Of a stretch of DNA of 64,000 nt, positions 3,817 through 11,481 are shown piece by piece. Position numbers and translations under genes: made by a program. The DNA is from a bacterium (GTDB taxonomy: Bacteria; Patescibacteriota; Minisyncoccia; Minisyncoccales; CG1-02-41-26). The notes beneath the pieces are model-generated. The model searched no databases, was not told the DNA's origin, and worked only from the letters and a program-made list of their open reading frames with translations. The stretch lies in NCBI GenBank assembly GCA_030616605.1, contig JAUWWY010000002.1, forward strand, positions 30,404-94,403, written 5' to 3'. Within the stretch, counting starts at the first letter, position 1. Each line of letters opens with the position of its first letter.

Positions 3817-4911
3817 TTAAAGGTTAGTTCTTTTTAAGCTCGCTAAGATTCCCAAACCAAGATAAAAAGCCAAGAGTTGGGAGCCACCGTAGCTGACAAA
3901 AGGCAAGGGGATACCGATTATCGGCAAAACCCCAAGAGCCATTCCTATATTTATAAAACTTTGAGAAAGAAGTAAAAAACTGAAGCCAGCAGCAAATAAC
4001 CTGGTAAAATTGTCCTCAGCACTTAGGGCAATTTTCATTATCTGCCAGAAAAGAAAACTGAATAAAAATATTAAAACAAACACCCCTAAAAAACCTGTTT
4101 CTTCAGCAATAGCTGAAAAAATAAAATCAGTCTGGGGTTCTGGTAAAAAACCGTACTGGGCTTGAGAACCTTTGAAAAGTCCCTTTCCCAAAAGGCCACC
4201 CGAGCCTATGGCAATTTTTGACTGATTAATATTCCAGGAAATTCCCTGAGGGTCAACTTGCTGATTTAAAAAGCTCAAAACTCTTTGTTTTTGATAATCT
4301 TTTAACCAAAACTGCCAGGAAAACCCACCAATAATTAAAAAAACTAAAAATAAAATTAAAAAATGACGAAGTTTAATTCCAGAGAAAATAATAATTCCCA
4401 GCCAGACTGAAATCAAAATAAGAGAAGAACCAAGGTCTGGTTGAAATAAAACTAAAAAGAAAGGAATAAGAAGATAAATCCCGGAAAACAGAATTGGTTG
4501 AAACCTTTTAGTTTCAATATGACGAAAGGAAAAATACTTACTTAAAACAACAATTAAGCAGATTACAACAAGCGGTACAGGATCAAAAGAAAAAATTCCT
4601 GCTTTATACCATCCTTTAACTCCTCTTACTTCACTGCCAAATAAAAACAATCCCCCTAAACTCAGTAAACCCAAAAGATAAAAACCCAAAACTAAATAAG
4701 AATTTGTTTTTAAAAATCTTAGGTCAAAAAAACTGAAAAAAATCAGCAAAAAAATACCCAGAGCAAAAAAGGCAATTTGTTTTTTGAAATTAAAAAAATC
4801 CTCTATTCCAAGAGAAGAACTATAAATAGATAAAAGTCCAAAAGAAGTTAGAAGGAAAGCTGGTAAAATTAAAAACCAGTTAAGTTTTTTAAAATAAATT
4901 AAAAAATTCAT
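3817..4911 (-). CDS. FtsW/RodA/SpoVE (SEDS) family peptidoglycan polymerase
   Basis: 364-aa polytopic membrane protein with family-typical motifs (QPDLGS, AEETGF, PFVSYGGS). Confidence 0.85.
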   Translation of the reverse strand: MNFLIYFKKLNWFLILPAFLLTSFGLLSIYSSSLGIEDFFNFKKQIAFFALGIFLLIFFSFFDLRFLKTNSYLVLGFYLLGLLSLGGLFLFGSEVRGVKGWYKAGIFSFDPVPLVVICLIVVLSKYFSFRHIETKRFQPILFSGIYLLIPFFLVLFQPDLGSSLILISVWLGIIIFSGIKLRHFLILFLVFLIIGGFSWQFWLKDYQKQRVLSFLNQQVDPQGISWNINQSKIAIGSGGLLGKGLFKGSQAQYGFLPEPQTDFIFSAIAEETGFLGVFVLIFLFSFLFWQIMKIALSAEDNFTRLFAAGFSFLLLSQSFINIGMALGVLPIIGIPLPFVSYGGSQLLAFYLGLGILASLKRTNL

Positions 4912-4923
4912 AAATTAAGAATA

Positions 4924-4941
4924 TCACCGTCCCGACCGGTG
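4924..4941 (-). repeat. REP-like hairpin repeat, copy E (inverted orientation): TCACCGTCCCGACCGGTG
   Basis: Reverse complement of the 18-mer CACCGGTCGGGACGGTGA found four more times within 1.3 kb. It can fold as a CACCG/CGGTG stem. Confidence 0.8.
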
Positions 4942-5685
4942 TTTTTCCTTTTCTTCTGCCTCCTCTAGAGCGAGCTCGGCGAATTCCCTAATTTCTCCCT
5001 TGTACCTTATCCAATTTTCAACAAACTTTTTGCAACCTTGTGGACCATTCATTACCTTTGACAAAAATTCTCTCTCGGTGACCGATGGAAAATTCTTTTT
5101 GCCAATATAATCAGGATAACTTGACCATTTATAATTTTCCAAAAACTTAATGACTTTCTCTGGGTTTTGAATTCCTATTTCTTTCCATTTTGGCTCAATA
5201 AGAGAAATGGGGTTGGCGTGGATATAAACAAATACAACTTTTAATTGGTTATCGTCTTCGATGTGAACCGAAACGAATCTGTTTTGAAAAACATGGCCTT
5301 TGCGATTGTATTTTCTATTGAAATATCCCCCATAACCTCCACCTATCTTTTGCATAAAGTTGGAAATTCCCTCGTCTTTTAGCTGTTTCAACAATAAATG
5401 GATATGATTGGGCATAAGAGAAAAAGTTAAAACTTCAACAATTTTATCCCGTTCATCATTGACACCGGTCGGGACGGTGATGGTTTCTTTGAGGGCTTTT
5501 TTCATTTGGGCACGAACTTTCCTCCGTTCCCTAATCTTTACTAATCTGGCCGTATTAAACTCATAAATGGAGAAAATTCCACGATAATAGTCATCAATAT
5601 CTTTGAAAATTAAATTATCATCAATTGCTCTTAGAGTAACGTGATAAATTTCGCTGTTTGCAAATTGTTGTTCTCTATAAGGCAT
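4924..5685 (-). CDS. REP-associated tyrosine transposase (RAYT; IS200-like Y1/HUH transposase fold)
   Basis: HUH motif MPNHIHLLL and downstream VYIHANP tyrosine motif. The ATG at 5685 is preferred over the GTG at 5697 used in the track. The last five codons plus stop (HRSGR*) are supplied by a REP copy. Confidence 0.75.
   Translation of the reverse strand: MPYREQQFANSEIYHVTLRAIDDNLIFKDIDDYYRGIFSIYEFNTARLVKIRERRKVRAQMKKALKETITVPTGVNDERDKIVEVLTFSLMPNHIHLLLKQLKDEGISNFMQKIGGGYGGYFNRKYNRKGHVFQNRFVSVHIEDDNQLKVVFVYIHANPISLIEPKWKEIGIQNPEKVIKFLENYKWSSYPDYIGKKNFPSVTEREFLSKVMNGPQGCKKFVENWIRYKGEIREFAELALEEAEEKEKHRSGR
5463..5480 (+). repeat. REP-like hairpin repeat, copy A (inside the RAYT coding sequence, in frame as TVPTG)
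   Basis: Exact CACCGGTCGGGACGGTGA. Confidence 0.8.
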
Positions 5686-5694
5686 AAATAGTGT

Positions 5695-5712
5695 CACCGG
5701 TCGGGACGGTGA
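5695..5712 (+). repeat. REP-like hairpin repeat, copy B (between the RAYT start and the giant-gene stop)
   Basis: Exact CACCGGTCGGGACGGTGA. Shares the extended context AATAGTGTCACCGGTCGGGACGGTGATGG with copy C. Confidence 0.8.
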
Positions 5713-5730
5713 TGGCTTTAAATGTTAATC

Positions 5731-8700
5731 TTATGGCGTTGGTTCTGGAGTTGGTTCGGGTTCGGGTTCAGGTTCAGGAGTTGGTTCTGGCTCTGGCTCG
5801 GGCGTTGGTTCAGGTTCAGGAGTTGGTTCTGGCTCGGGCGTTGGTTCAGGTTCAGGAGTTGGTTCTGGCTCTGGCTCGGGCGTTGGTTCAGGTTCAGGAG
5901 TTGGTTCTGGCTCTGGAGTTGGAATAGTGTCACCGGTCGGGACGGTGATGGTTGACTCGGTGATTGTGGTTGTAGCCTGTTCTGAATCTATTGAAGAGGT
6001 TTCTGGAGTAGTTGTTGCTTCAGGGCTAGTGGTTTCTTCGGTGGTAGTTGCTGTTTCAGTAGTAGTTGTGTTCGTAGTCGTAGCTTGGGACTCTGTAGTG
6101 TCTCCTGCCGGGGATTCTTCTTCAGGAGTTGTAGAATCTGTGGTGCCACCTGTGGTGTCACCGGTCGGGACGGTGATGGTGGCGGAATCGCAGTCAGCCT
6201 TGACTCTCATTTGTTGACCATTCTCAACCCAACTACACCAAATCTCACCAGTGATTTGGTCAACCATTTCTAATTTATCAATCCGGGCTGTACCAACTAT
6301 TAGTTTCTTAACCTTAGCCACGCCATTTTCAATAATCAGGCCTAACTTTTGCAAACTGTCTTTTACGGCTTCAGTAAAATTGTGAAGCAAGGTTGTTTGT
6401 TCTGAGCTGGAAGTAGTTGTTGCCCCAATTTTTAATTTCAATTCTTCTATTTGATTTTGCTGCTCTTTTATCATCCCCAAAGCCAAACCACCCAAATCAG
6501 TACCAGATATACCCTTATTATCTCCTAAACCAAAAATGGCATAAAAATCCTCGGAGAATGGACTAAAATGTCTCATTGCTGAATCTATATCTTGTTTATA
6601 AGACCATTCCTGAAGAGGCAATTCTTTCAATTTATTGAGTAACTCTTTCCCATCTATTTCCACAAAGTTATGTTTTATTTCTTTACTTGAACTACCCATC
6701 CACTGCCCAGTACCCATAAGTACATTGTCAGCGCTTACCCAAGCACCAAAACTATTTGCCCCAGCATGCCATCTCTGGGCATAGGGCGCTGTATCATCAG
6801 CATGTATTTGCAACATACCAGTAAGCTCTGCCCCACCATTATCCACAATATCTAAATTACCCACAGGACTATCCGTCCCGATGCCGACGTTTCCTGCAGA
6901 TGTGATTCTCATTGCCTCAGTAAGTGTAGGTCCTGCAGTAACAGAAAATGCAAGGTCTACCCAACCATAATCTGTGTCACCAGTTGGTATTGCTTTAATT
7001 TCAGCATATCTTTCAGTAGGAGCATGTGTTGGGGAAAGTCTTATTGCCACAGAATCCTGACCAAAAACCCTGCCAGAAGTTAATTGTAATAAAACTTTCT
7101 CTCCTGCTGTGGTGTCGGAAATCTCTAAAAGACTTGTAGGACTCCCCGTCCCGATGCCGACATTGCCGTCATTTCTCACATAAAAAGCATCGTCGTCTAA
7201 ATCATACTGTGTCCCAGCAGGCAAAGATTCTGTTGCTATGCCTGATGCTCCTTCAACAGGGGTAAAAACTCCCTGAATTTGTGCTGTGCTGAACTTATTA
7301 TACGTATCTACTTGATAAGCATAAATCTTCAATGTTTTTAGTTCTGACGTATCTGAAGTTAATATAGCTTTAATTGGTATTACTCGATAACCTGCTGATT
7401 GTATGGGAATAAGAGTAATATCGGGACTACTTGACATAGTAGCTTGTTGCCTAATTCTAACCATAAACTGCTGGGAAGATATTCTTAACCAAGTCCCTCC
7501 AACAATACTTACTATAAATATACTCTCAGTTTCGGCATATTGAGAAATAAGGTTCGTCTCTGCTATTTGATACCATTTATTATTATCAGTTGAACCAGAC
7601 TCAGCGGTTAGCCAATAGTTTTGCATTTGACCTTTTGATTTTACAAATCCATTTACATCTAACGTATACTCAGGACTATCCGTCCCGATTCCTAAATTGC
7701 CACCAGTGTTAAAATAAGAATCTCCAATGGTATTGAACCATATTGTAGTACCAGTCGCATCGGCCAGAGTCATGGTAGCATGCTTATTTGTTTGCTCCCA
7801 CAATCCCAAAATAGCATTTCCATCGGAATTAAGAATTTGGAATGGGTGAGTATCTGTACCTGAAGATTGCACTGTTAGTCTCGCCCCAGGACTACTCGTC
7901 CCGATGCCGACTTTACCATCTCGTTGTATTCTCATGTGTTCAATATAACCCGGAGCTGCAGCCCTTGAGCCAAATATTAAATTAACCTCATCTTCAGCAG
8001 GTCTTTCAGCATCAATTATAAAATACTCTCCACCCCCTAAATTAAACTTTATAGGAATATGCGAACCAAATGAATCATTAGTATGCTGAAGATAAAGCCA
8101 AGGAGTAGCATCATAAGGAGATTGAGCAGAGTTGTCGTAAGGACGTATTATCTCAAGATACTTTGCCCTTATATTTCCAGAAACTTCTAAAAGTCTAGCA
8201 GGACTACTCGTCCCGATGCCGACTCTCTGATTTCCTGAATCAATATATAAGACAGGGGTTGAACTTGTGCCAAATTGAGCCGAACCATAGACATCCAAAA
8301 GAGATGCAGGACTACTCGTTCCGATGCCGACGTTGCCATTATCATGTATTCTCATGACTTCTGCATTATTCTGCCCAAATACAACAGGAATATCCTCTAT
8401 TGCTCCGATTGCAAAAGTGGTCGCACTCTGGCTCCAAATAGCATTCATATCATTAGTTGAAATTCCAAATAAAGTGCCACCAGTTGAACTACCATAAGAC
8501 CTTACTTGAATATAATTCCCACTTCCAGAATTGAAACTGGATAAGTAACCTGAATAAGAAACATTGTTTGTTTGTGATACTAAGCCTATATCTTCTGCAC
8601 CAGCTCCATATACATGAACCTTATATACCGGCGTCACTGTCCCGATGCCGACTCTGCCGCTACTGTCAATTCTCATCCTCTCTGTGCCAAATGTTTTGAA

Positions 8701-11481
8701 TGTAATTGTGTTTGCCAGGGGGGTGCCAACTCCAAGAATATACATATTGTCTAAATAAGCTATGTTGTCCGCATCAGCATCAACTATTGTTATGATTATT
8801 TGGTCAATAGCGTCTTTATCCGCATCTGCAACCCCAGATATCTCCCAAGTTTCCGTTTGGTAGGTATTGGATGTCGCAACATTTGCCGTATGCTCGGTAA
8901 TTGTCCCTCCAGAATCGTGAATACTTATTTTTATATTACTTCCTGTTCTTAAAGCATAGATGTCATATTTAATCGTGCTCATACCAGACAAATCTATCGT
9001 CGGGCTAACTGTCCTCGTCAAAGTCTCATTTAAACTACTGGTCATTTGTGCTATTCCTTTCAGAGAGTAAGTACCTTGTTGGACAATGGTAGATTCAGAA
9101 TAACATTGCAATGCACTTACACCATGGGAAGGATTTTCGTCTTCAGTGCCATTACCACTATTATAAATAGCTTCAATATCAGCCGTAGAAAGCTTAAAGT
9201 TATAAAGGCGAACATCATCTATATCTCCATCAAATCTTTCGGAACCTCCCCCAAGCTGACCTATAAATCCTTGAGTCCAGTCAAAGCTATTTAAAGCGGT
9301 TACTGAATCTGTGCCATCTACACCTGCATTTATGTAAAGCTTCATATCGGTTCCATCATAAGTAACAACCACATGAGACCATCCAGCAGTAGAAATATCT
9401 GCTGCACTTATAGCGTGGATATATCCGCCACCAAGTTTGTTTGTATAACAATGAAGTTTACTATTTTCAATTCTGAAAAACGTAGTGTTAGAAAACTCAG
9501 GCATCATTACAATCTCGTGTACCCCTGTAATTGTATCTGGATAAATCCAAGCACAAATGCTAAATTTTGTTGCCTGCATATCAAGTTCAGTTAAATTTAC
9601 ATAATCATTGGTTCCATCAAAATCAAACGCACCACCTATTTTACCTGTTGAATGCAAAAGAGAAGTATTTTTTGATGCTACCCCAGTAGATGCTGCCATG
9701 GCATCAGCCACATTGGTATTAGCTGCGTCATCATTTAATTTATAATGATGTAATGGATCAGCAACTTCTCCAGCAGCAGCACTACTCACATAAGCTGCTT
9801 GAGCCGCTGCATCGTTAGCATATTCCATATAATCAAGTTCAGTTGGCGCTGCAGGTGCTGTGAGTGAAATAGTTGTGTCATTGTCAGCATCCTGAAGGGC
9901 AGTCGTTATAATAGAGCCATTTACTTCTAACTTTGCCCCAGGACTATTTGTTCCGATTCCCAATCTATTATTAGTATCATCCCAATAAAGATTAGTATTG
10001 TCCTGGGAAATTAGTCCTGATGAAGTAGAGAAGAGGATTGAACCATTGGTTAATCCTGAAAGAGTCAAATCAGTGGTTACTATTAAGTTAGTGGTGGTAG
10101 CTGTGCTTGTAACAGTAAGATTATTAAAAGTTGGAGAATCAGATGTTCTCAGGTTTTGGTTCATTAGATAAACTTCAGTTGCTCCCTGACCAGTATCAAT
10201 TGTTCCTGCTAAAGTAATATTTCCTGAACCCCAGATATCGCCAGCCACGGTTAAAGGATAAGATGGAGTTGTGGTAGCGATACCTAATCTGGTAATAGTG
10301 GTGGTGGCTAAAGTGGAGGTGGCTTGGACAACCTGAGTACCTGAGACAGCAAGATTGCCACTCATTGAAATATCACCAGTGGTACTAAGATTGCCATTTG
10401 AATTAACAGTTAAATAATTGGTTGTGCCACCAACTCTGAAGGTGTTGGTTAAAGTAACAGGGGAGATAAAATTAGCAGTGGCATAAACTCTCAGTTTGTC
10501 TAAAGAATCAGAACCAAGAGTGGCAGAACCACCAACTCCTAAGTTAGTAATTCCAGCCATACCGGAAACCCCCAAAGAAGCTAAGGTCGCTGCTCCTCCT
10601 ATTTGAATTCCCTGGGAGCCAATATATACTGGAGCGGTTGAAACCTGAGTGGAAGGAGGATGAGTTTGAAGTTTACTGGTTAAAATCTGGAGAGTCAGAA
10701 TATCTTTTTCCCATTCCTGGATTTCGGAAATTTGGGATTTGAGCAGAATCAGGGATTTATCATCAATTGTTTCTATTTCTTTGACAATAACTTCTACCTC
10801 TTTTATTATTTCTTTTTGAGACACTCCTTCTTCTTTTAGTTTTTCAAATCTTTCCTGGAGTTCTCTGAATTGTTCTCTGGTAATAAATTTCTCAGCAATT
10901 AATTTTTCTATTTCTTGTTTTAAAACAAGATCTTCCCTTAAAACAACTTTCTCTTTTCCTTTAAAAATGCTAACTACTTTTTGAGGAACCTGTTTTATTT
11001 TCTGAACCAGTATTTGAATTTGTTTTTTAATTGCTCTTGTATTTTGAGTAACATATTGGCTGACCTGGTCTTTAATAGAGGCAGTATTTTTTTTAATATC
11101 AGAAGTAATTTCTTCTACTTGTTTTACGAAGGAACTGACAACTGGTTCAAAATAGGAATAAGCAAAAATAGTTCCAATAAAAGTCAAAACAAAAACCAGT
11201 GCTATTGCCACTACAATAGTGCGTGGCAGCACTGATTGGTAAAAAGGTTTCTCTATTTTTTCTAATTCTTTTTTCTTCTTTCTCTTGGCTGTCTGATTTT
11301 TATACTCTGTCACCCTCTTCAAATATTCATCTATCCATTCTTTGGTAGTCGTCCAGTTTCTACCAATTTTTACTGCCTTTAGTTTTCCTTGCCTGACTCT
11401 TAAATTCAAATACTCCTGAGAATATCCAGAATATTCTGCTGCTTTTCTAAGGGAGATTTGCTCGGACTTTCCTTCCTGCAT
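5731..11481 (-). CDS. Giant (1916 aa) HTH, TM, coiled-coil, LamG, tail-fibre-like protein with a Peptidase_S74-type intramolecular chaperone domain
   Basis: The N-terminus has an excisionase/MerR-like HTH ([34 protein letters not shown]), followed by one TM helix. The LamG/ConA-like region runs from [10 protein letters not shown] to [11 protein letters not shown]. At least 8 G.VGIGT.SP repeats are typical of tail-fibre proteins. [10 protein letters not shown]...LQEWSYK resembles the S74 chaperone domain. Confidence 0.7.
5734..5925 (-). repeat. Coding tandem repeat (36/42-bp units on a 6-bp base period) encoding a (TPEPEP)n tail
   Basis: Repeated GGCGTTGGTTCAGGTTCAGGAGTTGGTTCTGGCTC(TGGCTC)G units. 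Translates on the minus strand as [14 protein letters not shown]... Confidence 0.9.
5931..5948 (+). repeat. REP-like hairpin repeat, copy C (inside the giant gene, in frame as ITVPTGDT)
   Basis: Exact CACCGGTCGGGACGGTGA. Confidence 0.8.
6159..6176 (+). repeat. REP-like hairpin repeat, copy D (inside the giant gene, in frame as ITVPTGDT)
   Basis: Exact CACCGGTCGGGACGGTGA. Confidence 0.8.

Follow-up and report, generated by a model that had tools for sequence, protein, structure and literature searches.

A hairpin tethered to a RAYT-like HUH gene at three sites, one of them in frame within the gene

What lies at the locus?

Our subject is a short hairpin-forming DNA element and the gene that it accompanies, both found in a 64-kb stretch of bacterial DNA (GenBank contig JAUWWY010000002.1, positions 30,404 to 94,403 of the forward strand) that we call the window throughout. 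The gene encodes a protein resembling the RAYTs, the tyrosine transposases associated with repetitive extragenic palindromic (REP) elements, and the element is an 18-mer, CACCGGTCGGGACGGTGA, which an exact search places on the plus strand at 5463, 5695, 5931 and 6159 and on the minus strand at 4924, in agreement with the initial annotation of this DNA. These five exact copies are packed into 1.25 kb, and no other is found in the remaining 62.7 kb at up to three mismatches, a count that covers 64 kb of the source genome only; in a shuffled window no match would be expected. The earlier impression that the window holds no further copies also survives when the loop is left free, since the pattern CACCG-N7-CGGTG with one mismatch returns only the known five sites. 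Copies in the same orientation are spaced 232, 236 and 228 bp apart, as first described, and between copies B and C the repeat widens to 29 identical nucleotides (5687-5715 and 5923-5951). Folded as single-stranded DNA, each copy gives a stem of 5-7 bp and a 7-nt loop, at -4.2 to -5.5 kcal/mol and with z scores of -1.1 to -2.7, a modest gain over shuffles; the bulged GACGGTG stem that had been offered as an alternative would leave a 2-nt loop and is not supported. The gene and the copies are as follows.

4924 to 5685, minus strand: RAYT-like Y1 HUH gene, 253 aa from an ATG at 5685
4924 to 4941, minus strand: copy E, the hairpin of the 3' flank and the only one of the five in this orientation; encodes HRSGR and the TGA stop
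5463 to 5480, plus strand: copy A, the internal hairpin, in frame as TVPTG (TITVPTG), with CCG as its centre codon
5695 to 5712, plus strand: copy B, the 5' leader hairpin, non-coding, its centre ~18 nt upstream of the ATG
5931 to 5948, plus strand: copy C, an extra copy in the 3' tail of the neighbouring giant gene, read as TITVPTGDT
6159 to 6176, plus strand: copy D, an extra copy in the giant gene, read as TITVPTGDT
Both strands: the window hairpin element, a candidate enzyme substrate, CCATCACCGTCCCGACCGGTGACACTATT

The gene is thus bracketed by inverted copies, B and E, and the reading frames reported at the outset for copy A (TVPTG) and for copy E (the last codons and stop, HRSGR*) are those that we find. 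Copy B occupies the 45-nt gap between the stop of the giant gene (5731) and the start of the RAYT-like gene, and its 3' arm, GGTGA on the sense strand, lies ~8 nt upstream of the ATG, where it is possibly the Shine-Dalgarno sequence. As we describe below, copies B, A and E occupy the three sites that are canonical for a whole gene family, and copies C and D are the only lineage-specific gains.

What kind of protein does the gene encode?

Profile matches, invariant motifs and a predicted structure together point to a divergent RAYT-like Y1 HUH enzyme, in keeping with the RAYT gene that had been called from its HUH and tyrosine motifs. The Pfam family Y1_Tnp (PF01797), whose alignment had been proposed as a check, matches with an E value of 1.9e-11 and 44.6 bits, above its cut-off of 23. 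The best match in NCBIfam is REP_Tyr_transpos (NF047646, an equivalog) at 48.3 bits, below its cut-off of 80, and transpos_IS200 (NF033573) reaches 16.2 bits against a cut-off of 55. The HUH residues (H94 and H96) and the tyrosine (Y154) are invariant in 119 homologues, and the AlphaFold2 (AF2) model built from this 119-sequence alignment has a mean per-residue confidence (pLDDT) of 80 and a pTM of 0.77. With Foldseek, its best match is 4ER8 (chain A; the E. coli RAYT bound to REP) at E 2e-5, followed by ISDra2 and IS608 TnpA.

The start is likely the ATG at 5685, given that MPYR is invariant in the family alignment. A search of 5.8 billion proteins returned 2383 relatives, the best 120 of which are 64-87% identical and 230-286 aa long. 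The sole informative name that came with them is "transposase [Patescibacteria group bacterium]", attached to one homologue, and it is on this one name that we call the family probably patescibacterial (candidate phyla radiation). The window has a single RAYT-like gene; an exact look-up has no entry for its protein, PHROGs yield no match for it and a sequence search of the PDB with the family profile gave nothing at E <= 0.01.

Two additions to the compact Y1 fold can be read from the AF2 model: a K/R-rich helix (residues 51-66), inserted with a loop behind it, and a C-terminal region of ~80 aa. Copy A encodes part of that loop, which is hypervariable and sits between the K/R-rich helix and the strand preceding the HUH strand. 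Internally and C-terminally, pLDDT drops below 50 only at residues 69-75 and 238-253, into which the two hairpin-encoded stretches fall, and these peptide segments are probably disordered if the model is right; the low-confidence positions of TVPTG and HRSGR would fit passengers tolerated at the protein level. The protein also runs 11 aa past the usual end of the family: most aligned members stop at LALE or LALEE, with a hairpin just past the stop. Copy E, which had been taken for an insertion that remodelled the transposase, is therefore the family's usual post-stop hairpin, into which the extended reading frame of the window lineage and its closest relative runs.

Is the repeated unit one of DNA or of protein?

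That closest relative, which we call L001 (protein P0002), is 87% identical at the amino acid level and carries an identical 17/18-mer at the same three sites, that is, 40 nt before the ATG, in the loop (where it is read as CVTVPTG) and, inverted, at the 3' end. The DNA of the two genes is ~85% identical and the hairpins are 100% identical, and copy A lies inside the longest fully conserved run of the gene. The 5' hairpin, non-coding in L001 too, is kept inside an otherwise unalignable intergenic stretch, and at the other end there is a 2-nt indel just before the 3' hairpin, so that L001 reads TPVGTV... where the window reads HRSGR*. Full identity of the hairpins in diverged genes, a 3' copy whose frame has shifted and a 5' copy outside any gene exclude a coding motif; the element is a unit at the level of DNA. 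The similarity between window and L001 begins and ends at the flanking hairpins, and the downstream neighbours differ, with rodA in the window and a Gp49/HTH (helix-turn-helix) pair in L001.

As a side observation, L001 has a half-arm, CACCGGT, after its 5' hairpin (L001:6036-6045), which may be the remnant of an inverted, REPIN-like doublet.

How general is the three-site arrangement?

For this we turned to 80 metagenome loci that encode relatives, analysed by script, with counts over 82 loci where so stated. Most members carry a GC-rich palindrome, its sequence specific to the lineage, in three zones: in the 5' leader (about -20 to -90 before the ATG), in the in-frame loop (about +185 to +220 in the gene) and at the stop or close behind it. 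The internal element is matched exactly, over at least 11 nt, upstream in 53/82 loci, downstream in 59/82 and in both flanks in 46/82; many of the remaining loci have short contigs or imperfect stems. The centre of the nearest upstream copy lies at a median of 31 nt before the ATG, that of the nearest downstream copy at a median of 16 nt after the stop, and the upstream and internal copies are 212-289 bp apart.

The internal site is of particular interest, being the only hypervariable stretch of the protein alignment. Other lineages have quite different peptides there and keep the palindrome, and in 43 of 46 loci the palindrome is centred on the second base of such a codon as CNG, which means that the element is held in one frame at one site. 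Since most members hold a palindrome at this same codon position and frame, the internal copy is an ancestral resident and not a new insertion, contrary to the original proposal that REP insertion had remodelled the transposase. The family consensus may be written CGGAGG-N-C-N-G-N-CCTCCG, of which the stem of the window and L001, CACCG-TCCCGAC-CGGTG, is a swapped variant; the consensus hairpin GAGG-NCNGN-CCTC itself has no occurrence in the window, where no second hairpin type was detected. Orientation is less regular than position: the flank copies are mutually inverted in 19 of 27 distinct types and direct in the other 8, and the internal copy shares the orientation of the upstream copy in 18 of the 27.

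Some relatives (L110, L124, L175 and L176) have inverted doublets and small arrays. In L124 an inverted doublet, a 50-nt palindrome, lies in frame at the internal site (L124:6188-6237), and downstream of the gene comes an array of four or more additional copies (L124:6826-6950).

Do the hairpins of a locus evolve together?

The comparison between lineages shows that they do. When 37 distinct internal hairpins are aligned without gaps, 92.7% of cells are paired against 61.7% after shuffling. The hairpin finder demanded perfect stems of at least 5 bp, which inflates this percentage and adds to the apparent scarcity of G-T pairs within the inner stem; the variety of stems seen at the homologous site is independent of that selection. 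Double-sided changes number 76, against 17 in shuffles, and 7/7 stem pairs vary on both sides. G-T pairs show no enrichment, not even at those outer positions of the stem that the selection left unconstrained.

With hairpins located independently in each of the three zones, flank and internal copies of the same locus differ at a median of 0/17 positions (54/92 being identical), as against a median of 6/17 mismatches between the internal copies of different loci. Compensatory stem changes are, moreover, common to all copies of a lineage (CCGAGG...CCTCGG in one, for example, and CCAGAGG...CCTCTGG in another), which implies copying between sites rather than parallel substitution. The hairpins are in concerted evolution, covarying between lineages and usually identical within a locus.

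One locus departs from this uniformity. In L109, two downstream copies (L109:6730-6790) have the stem CAGAGG...CCTCTG, and the upstream and internal copies have CCCGAGG...CCTCGGG; these mixed stem alleles suggest recombination between lineages at the hairpin.

Are these REP elements?

The initial annotation took the copies for REPs. In the relatives' loci, however, 136 copies lie within 1 kb of the gene, and there is one in the 209,321 bp of flank farther out; the hairpins are tethered to the gene. A criterion for REPs is the tetranucleotide GTAG or GTGG, 0-2 nt 5' of the foot of the hairpin, and this guide is not conserved here, GTAG preceding the hairpin in 11 of 158 copy strands; nor is any tetranucleotide conserved 5' of the window's five copies. 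Together with the empty remainder of the window, this distribution and the missing guide tell us that, in the sequence covered, we are not dealing with classical dispersed REPs. Around the hairpins, the 5' side is A-rich and the 3' side T-rich. The lone distant copy is in L174 (about 3975-3995), 3.7 kb downstream of the gene, where an A5/stem/T5 palindrome with the look of a bidirectional terminator encloses it.

An exact scan of 185,579 species genomes found the 18-mer in 98 stretches, and among the 80 loci returned the matches are single, except for an Actinotalea contig with two, and belong almost all to high-GC genomes; none of the 80 adjoins a homologue of the RAYT-like gene.

What happened to the neighbouring surface-protein gene?

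The two extra copies lie in the gene upstream.

5731 to 11481, minus strand: giant surface protein of 1916 aa that resembles a tail fibre, with Laminin_G_3, GIGTxSP repeats and, at aa 1598-1650, an intramolecular-chaperone domain of Peptidase_S74-like type
5731 to 6190, minus strand: its low-complexity C-terminal tail, 460 bp, 54% GC against 35% for the window

Within the tail, copies D, C and B bracket a Thr-rich segment (5949-6158) and a (TPEPEP)n segment (5734-5930), and the giant open reading frame (ORF) reads copies C and D as (A/S)TITVPTGDT, so the ITVPTGDT reading was described correctly from the start. Conservation with L001 last appears in the segment ...ADCDSA, ~three codons before the start of copy D. 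The C-terminal region of distant homologues stops soon after the Peptidase_S74-like domain and the brief stretch behind it; the window protein runs ~250-270 aa further. The claim that hairpins remodelled the C-terminus of this protein can be kept only as far as copies C and D, which lie in an extension of low complexity that is missing from distant homologues. In L001, a fourth copy, with 1 mismatch to the 18-mer, sits in a different Thr-rich tract of that locus's own upstream giant gene; the positions not being orthologous, such gains have occurred more than once in the lineage.

In proteins of the Peptidase_S74 type, everything C-terminal to the cleavage serine is released after folding. The Pfam match here is marginal (21.3 bits against 22), with two invariant columns at the start of the S74-like domain, S99 and K104 in the numbering of the aligned query segment, where they belong to SSKEIK as its S and K, and we take this serine to be the autocleavage residue, from what is known of the family. 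The tail beyond the domain is thus probably cleaved off, and if it is released after folding, in-frame insertions there would be nearly neutral.

Some further features of the giant ORF are worth recording. Its N-terminus has an excisionase/MerR-like helix-turn-helix (a weak TIGR01764 match, aa 12-56), eight copies of a ~50-nt repeat encode the 'GIGTxSP'-type motif, and there are PHROG tail-fibre matches. A helix-turn-helix with Laminin_G_3, an S74-like domain and tail-fibre matches is an unusual mix for a cellular surface protein.

In what genomic setting does the family live?

Downstream of the RAYT-like gene comes a housekeeping gene.

3817 to 4911, minus strand: rodA/ftsW, starting 13 nt after the RAYT-like stop

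The same gene follows in several other loci of the family. Overall, the neighbours are ligA or fpg upstream and rodA/ftsW, holA, RNase J or a 5'-3' exonuclease downstream, and this synteny with housekeeping genes is partly conserved within sub-lineages. Such a setting, the partial synteny and the single gene in the window fit a domesticated, vertically inherited gene, as has been described for RAYTs (PMC5581495), and not an active insertion sequence (IS).

Across L101-L180, the flanks hold the replication and repair genes ligA, fpg, holA, a 5'-3' exonuclease, recA, dprA and a dinB-like gene, in addition to rodA/ftsW and RNase J. The DNA replication and repair neighbours may be a functional hint, from lineages that are not independent of one another.

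What might the hairpins be doing?

With somewhat better than even confidence, and from sequence comparison, we regard the locus as a member of a large conserved chromosomal family of Y1 HUH (RAYT-like) genes with a cognate hairpin tethered to the gene. By likeness to REP/RAYT systems, and to the left-end and right-end (LE/RE) hairpins recognised by IS200/IS605 TnpA, the hairpins would be sites at which the encoded HUH enzyme recognises and cleaves single-stranded DNA. Cleavage and strand transfer by the enzyme, or else gene conversion promoted by the hairpins, would homogenise the copies, and the same enzyme- or conversion-driven process might now and then seed a new copy nearby. The TVPTG and HRSGR peptides would be tolerated passengers in disordered segments; in the giant gene, where the tail would be removed by autoproteolysis, in-frame copies would be nearly neutral, and the TVPTG frame could survive there because it suits a Thr/Pro-rich linker. 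In many lineages the flank copies probably double as terminators or leader structures.

Several points weigh against this reading. That the protein binds or cuts the hairpin is a function that we infer, and the protein scores below the RAYT equivalog cut-off. The window hairpin is weak (a 5-6 bp stem, z about -1 to -2.7), its count comes from 64 kb, and the pairing statistics carry the bias of the perfect-stem finder. In about 10 of 78 loci the flank copies are kept and no palindrome inside the gene is convincing, and the orientation of the flanks is, as we have seen, not strict. With the copies lying within 1 kb of one another, ordinary gene conversion could homogenise them with no enzyme involved. 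Finally, many 3' copies sit in an A-run/stem/T-run context typical of intrinsic terminators (bidirectional-looking ones), and it is plausible that a regulatory role would suffice for the flank copies.

A more ambitious version, which we put forward only tentatively and consider rather doubtful, is that the family is a distinct class of HUH module, with a nick-site hairpin in its own ORF and in both flanks, in which the gene would be its own substrate and the function would be something other than the dispersal of REPs. It might amount to self-limiting autoregulation, the gene being cleaved or recombined when the enzyme is in excess or the DNA single-stranded, or alternatively to a rolling-circle-like release of ~230-nt single-stranded segments between direct copies. 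The activity would in that case have written two further units into the neighbouring surface-protein gene at the ~232 bp spacing.

Which other explanations have to be weighed?

The strongest competitor, which we nevertheless judge unlikely, is that the hairpins are purely regulatory, acting as terminators or attenuators or by sequestering the ribosome-binding site independently of the HUH protein, with the internal copy a by-product of gene conversion. Many 3' copies do sit in palindromes made of an A-run, a GC stem and a T-run, a consensus scan calls four of the window copies terminator-like, the GGTGA of copy B stands ~8 nt upstream of the ATG, just where a Shine-Dalgarno sequence is expected, and co-option of REPs for attenuation has a precedent (PMC3337134). 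Nothing about a terminator, however, would require it to be identical to an element that is held in frame at a single codon position throughout the family, and the internal copy has no T-run. Inverted flanks and flips of orientation are likewise left unaccounted for, as is the lack of enrichment of G-T pairs at the unconstrained outer stem positions. In the window, moreover, rodA starts 13 nt past the hairpin, and termination there would cut it off.

Distinctly unlikely, in our opinion, is a classical REP/RAYT system, with the 18-mer dispersed through the genome and the five copies being the usual cluster at the RAYT. The inverted hairpins around a RAYT-like gene would suit it, as would the doublets and small arrays in L110, L124, L175 and L176 and the L174 copy at 3.7 kb. 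If REP densities of 1 per 5-13 kb are assumed, as in E. coli and Pseudomonas, the other 62.7 kb of the window should contain 5-12 copies, and they contain none at up to three mismatches (P(0) <= 0.008). Beyond 1 kb, the relatives' flanks have 1 copy in 209 kb; the GTAG/GTGG guide is not conserved (11/158 strands) and the protein falls below the NCBIfam RAYT cut-off. In addition, highly abundant flanking 16-mers are reported only for RAYT groups 2 and 3 (Bertels 2017, PMC5581495).

A recombination switch for phase or antigenic variation, in which deletion or inversion would alter the C-terminus of the giant protein or toggle the RAYT-like gene, strikes us as very improbable. The perfect direct and inverted repeats of 18-29 bp in and beside a surface fibre gene are what such a switch would use, and a deletion between D and C would remove exactly 228 bp, or 76 codons, in frame. 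The three-site architecture recurs, however, in dozens of lineages with no giant gene alongside, no rearranged variant turned up among L001, L002 and the 80 loci, and the tail lies beyond the probable autocleavage site, which makes its display unlikely.

We give similarly little credence to an autonomous insertion sequence of the IS200/IS605 type, with LE and RE hairpins flanking tnpA. The Y1 HUH fold and a window-L001 similarity that is bounded by the flanking hairpins, with different neighbours downstream, speak in its favour; against it are the single copy in 64 kb, the housekeeping synteny (ligA/fpg/rodA/holA) kept across sub-lineages, a transpos_IS200 score of 16 bits against 55, immediate neighbours that are the giant gene and rodA with no adjacent tnpB, and flank hairpins that are mostly inverted and not on one strand.

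The idea that ITVPTGD is simply a conserved protein motif, with DNA identity secondary, deserves almost no belief and we rejected it, because although three copies share the frame as TITVPTG, copy B is non-coding, copy E is inverted, the 3' copy of L001 is read as PVGTV, other lineages vary the peptide and keep the palindrome, and the synonymous variation that a coding motif had been expected to show is absent from nine copies in two genomes whose genes differ at ~15% of sites.

How does the family compare with known systems?

RAYTs are the textbook "domesticated transposases". Systems in which they accompany REPs (TnpA_REP, 'REPtrons') were reportedly described by Nunvar 2010, Bertels & Rainey 2011 and Ton-Hoang 2012. 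In them, TnpA_REP acts on REP hairpins in single-stranded form, which it binds and cuts beside the stem, at CT/CA (Corneloup 2021, PMC8266576), and some RAYT groups have no abundant repeats (PMC5581495). Our family shares with these systems, in which the gene is single-copy, a housekeeping-like Y1 HUH gene (one copy in the 64 kb here), a best structural match to the E. coli RAYT-REP complex, short GC-rich palindromes in the flanks that are mostly inverted, and a hairpin sequence specific to the lineage, which suggests co-evolution; short perfect palindromes with loops of 3-5 nt give some likeness to group 3 REPs. It differs from them in that the hairpins are tethered to the gene and not found dispersed in the sequence examined, there is no conserved GTAG guide, and the gene for the enzyme itself contains one copy, in frame and at a conserved site. 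Its protein is different too, with ~240 aa, an inserted K/R-rich helix and loop, a C-terminal region of ~80 aa and a score below the equivalog cut-off.

With the IS200/IS605 TnpA proteins (IS608, ISDra2) the family has in common the Y1 HUH fold and hairpins at both ends of the gene. The leader hairpin of IS200 also limits translation, and copy B, which overlaps the likely Shine-Dalgarno sequence, is similar to it. In IS200/IS605 elements, the LE and RE hairpins are on the same (top) strand, unlike the end hairpins here, which are mostly mutually inverted and joined by a third, internal one; the gene is, furthermore, not multicopy in the window, has no tnpB beside it and keeps conserved synteny with housekeeping genes.

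For the internal copy, the nearest analogy (and it is an analogy only) is with rolling-circle initiators, in which a palindrome for a tyrosine nuclease lies inside the nuclease's own gene. The nick site of phiX174 gene A lies within its own coding sequence. In the pT181 family, the double-strand origin (dso, the nick-site palindrome) is inside the coding region of the initiator rep, and the peptide that it encodes is dispensable (PMC5703833). Those, unlike our chromosomal family with its three co-evolving copies, are replicons with a single origin copy and rolling-circle replication, and the pT181 protein is of the Rep_trans and not the Y1_Tnp type. Some REP doublets have been found to serve as transcription terminators or attenuators (PMC3337134), and the A-run/stem/T-run context of many 3' copies in the family resembles theirs; a terminator role leaves the in-frame internal copy and the identity of the three sites unaccounted for.

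What, then, does this add? A RAYT flanked by its own palindromes is already known. The family departs from described REP/RAYT systems in having an in-frame copy at one conserved codon position of the enzyme gene across a large family, hairpins tethered to that gene, a GTAG guide that is not conserved and three sites evolving in concert. Full-text searches of PubMed Central and bioRxiv found no paper on RAYTs in Patescibacteria or the candidate phyla radiation, and in PMC6006769, PMC3337134 and PMC8266576 a full-text phrase search met none of the phrases sought for a gene-internal copy.

The family offers a stripped-down case in which to study what RAYTs do and how REPs are copied, with one gene, three fixed hairpins and no dispersed population found, and both the recognition of the hairpin and its homogenisation by the HUH enzyme are open to direct test with a few oligonucleotides. 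In the in-frame copy one has a clean natural example of selection on DNA structure overriding selection on protein sequence at one loop, and the giant gene shows that such elements can enter neighbouring genes without breaking them.

Minor observations

An Rfam 15 covariance-model scan of 4300-6800 gave only a chance snoRNA match (E 0.97), and a PADLOC scan gave nothing. We also considered and rejected a general ruler of ~232 bp, because the upstream-to-internal spacing of 212-289 bp seen family-wide follows from the geometry of the gene; where other loci have additional upstream copies, these are spaced by 42-907 bp. In the window, the spacings that involve C and D (236 and 228 bp) echo that from the 5' to the internal copy (232 bp).

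Two plus-strand ORFs, 5691-5927 and 5927-6217, share the N-terminus MSPVGTVM, the GTG start codon of each lying immediately 5' of a hairpin copy. Both are probably spurious; in the GC-rich tail, stops are scarce in four of the six frames. Across the window, cumulative GC skew has a minimum near 30 kb, with a second change of sign near 38 kb; were 30 kb the origin, the sense strand of the RAYT-like gene would be the lagging-strand template, the strand used by HUH Y1 enzymes.

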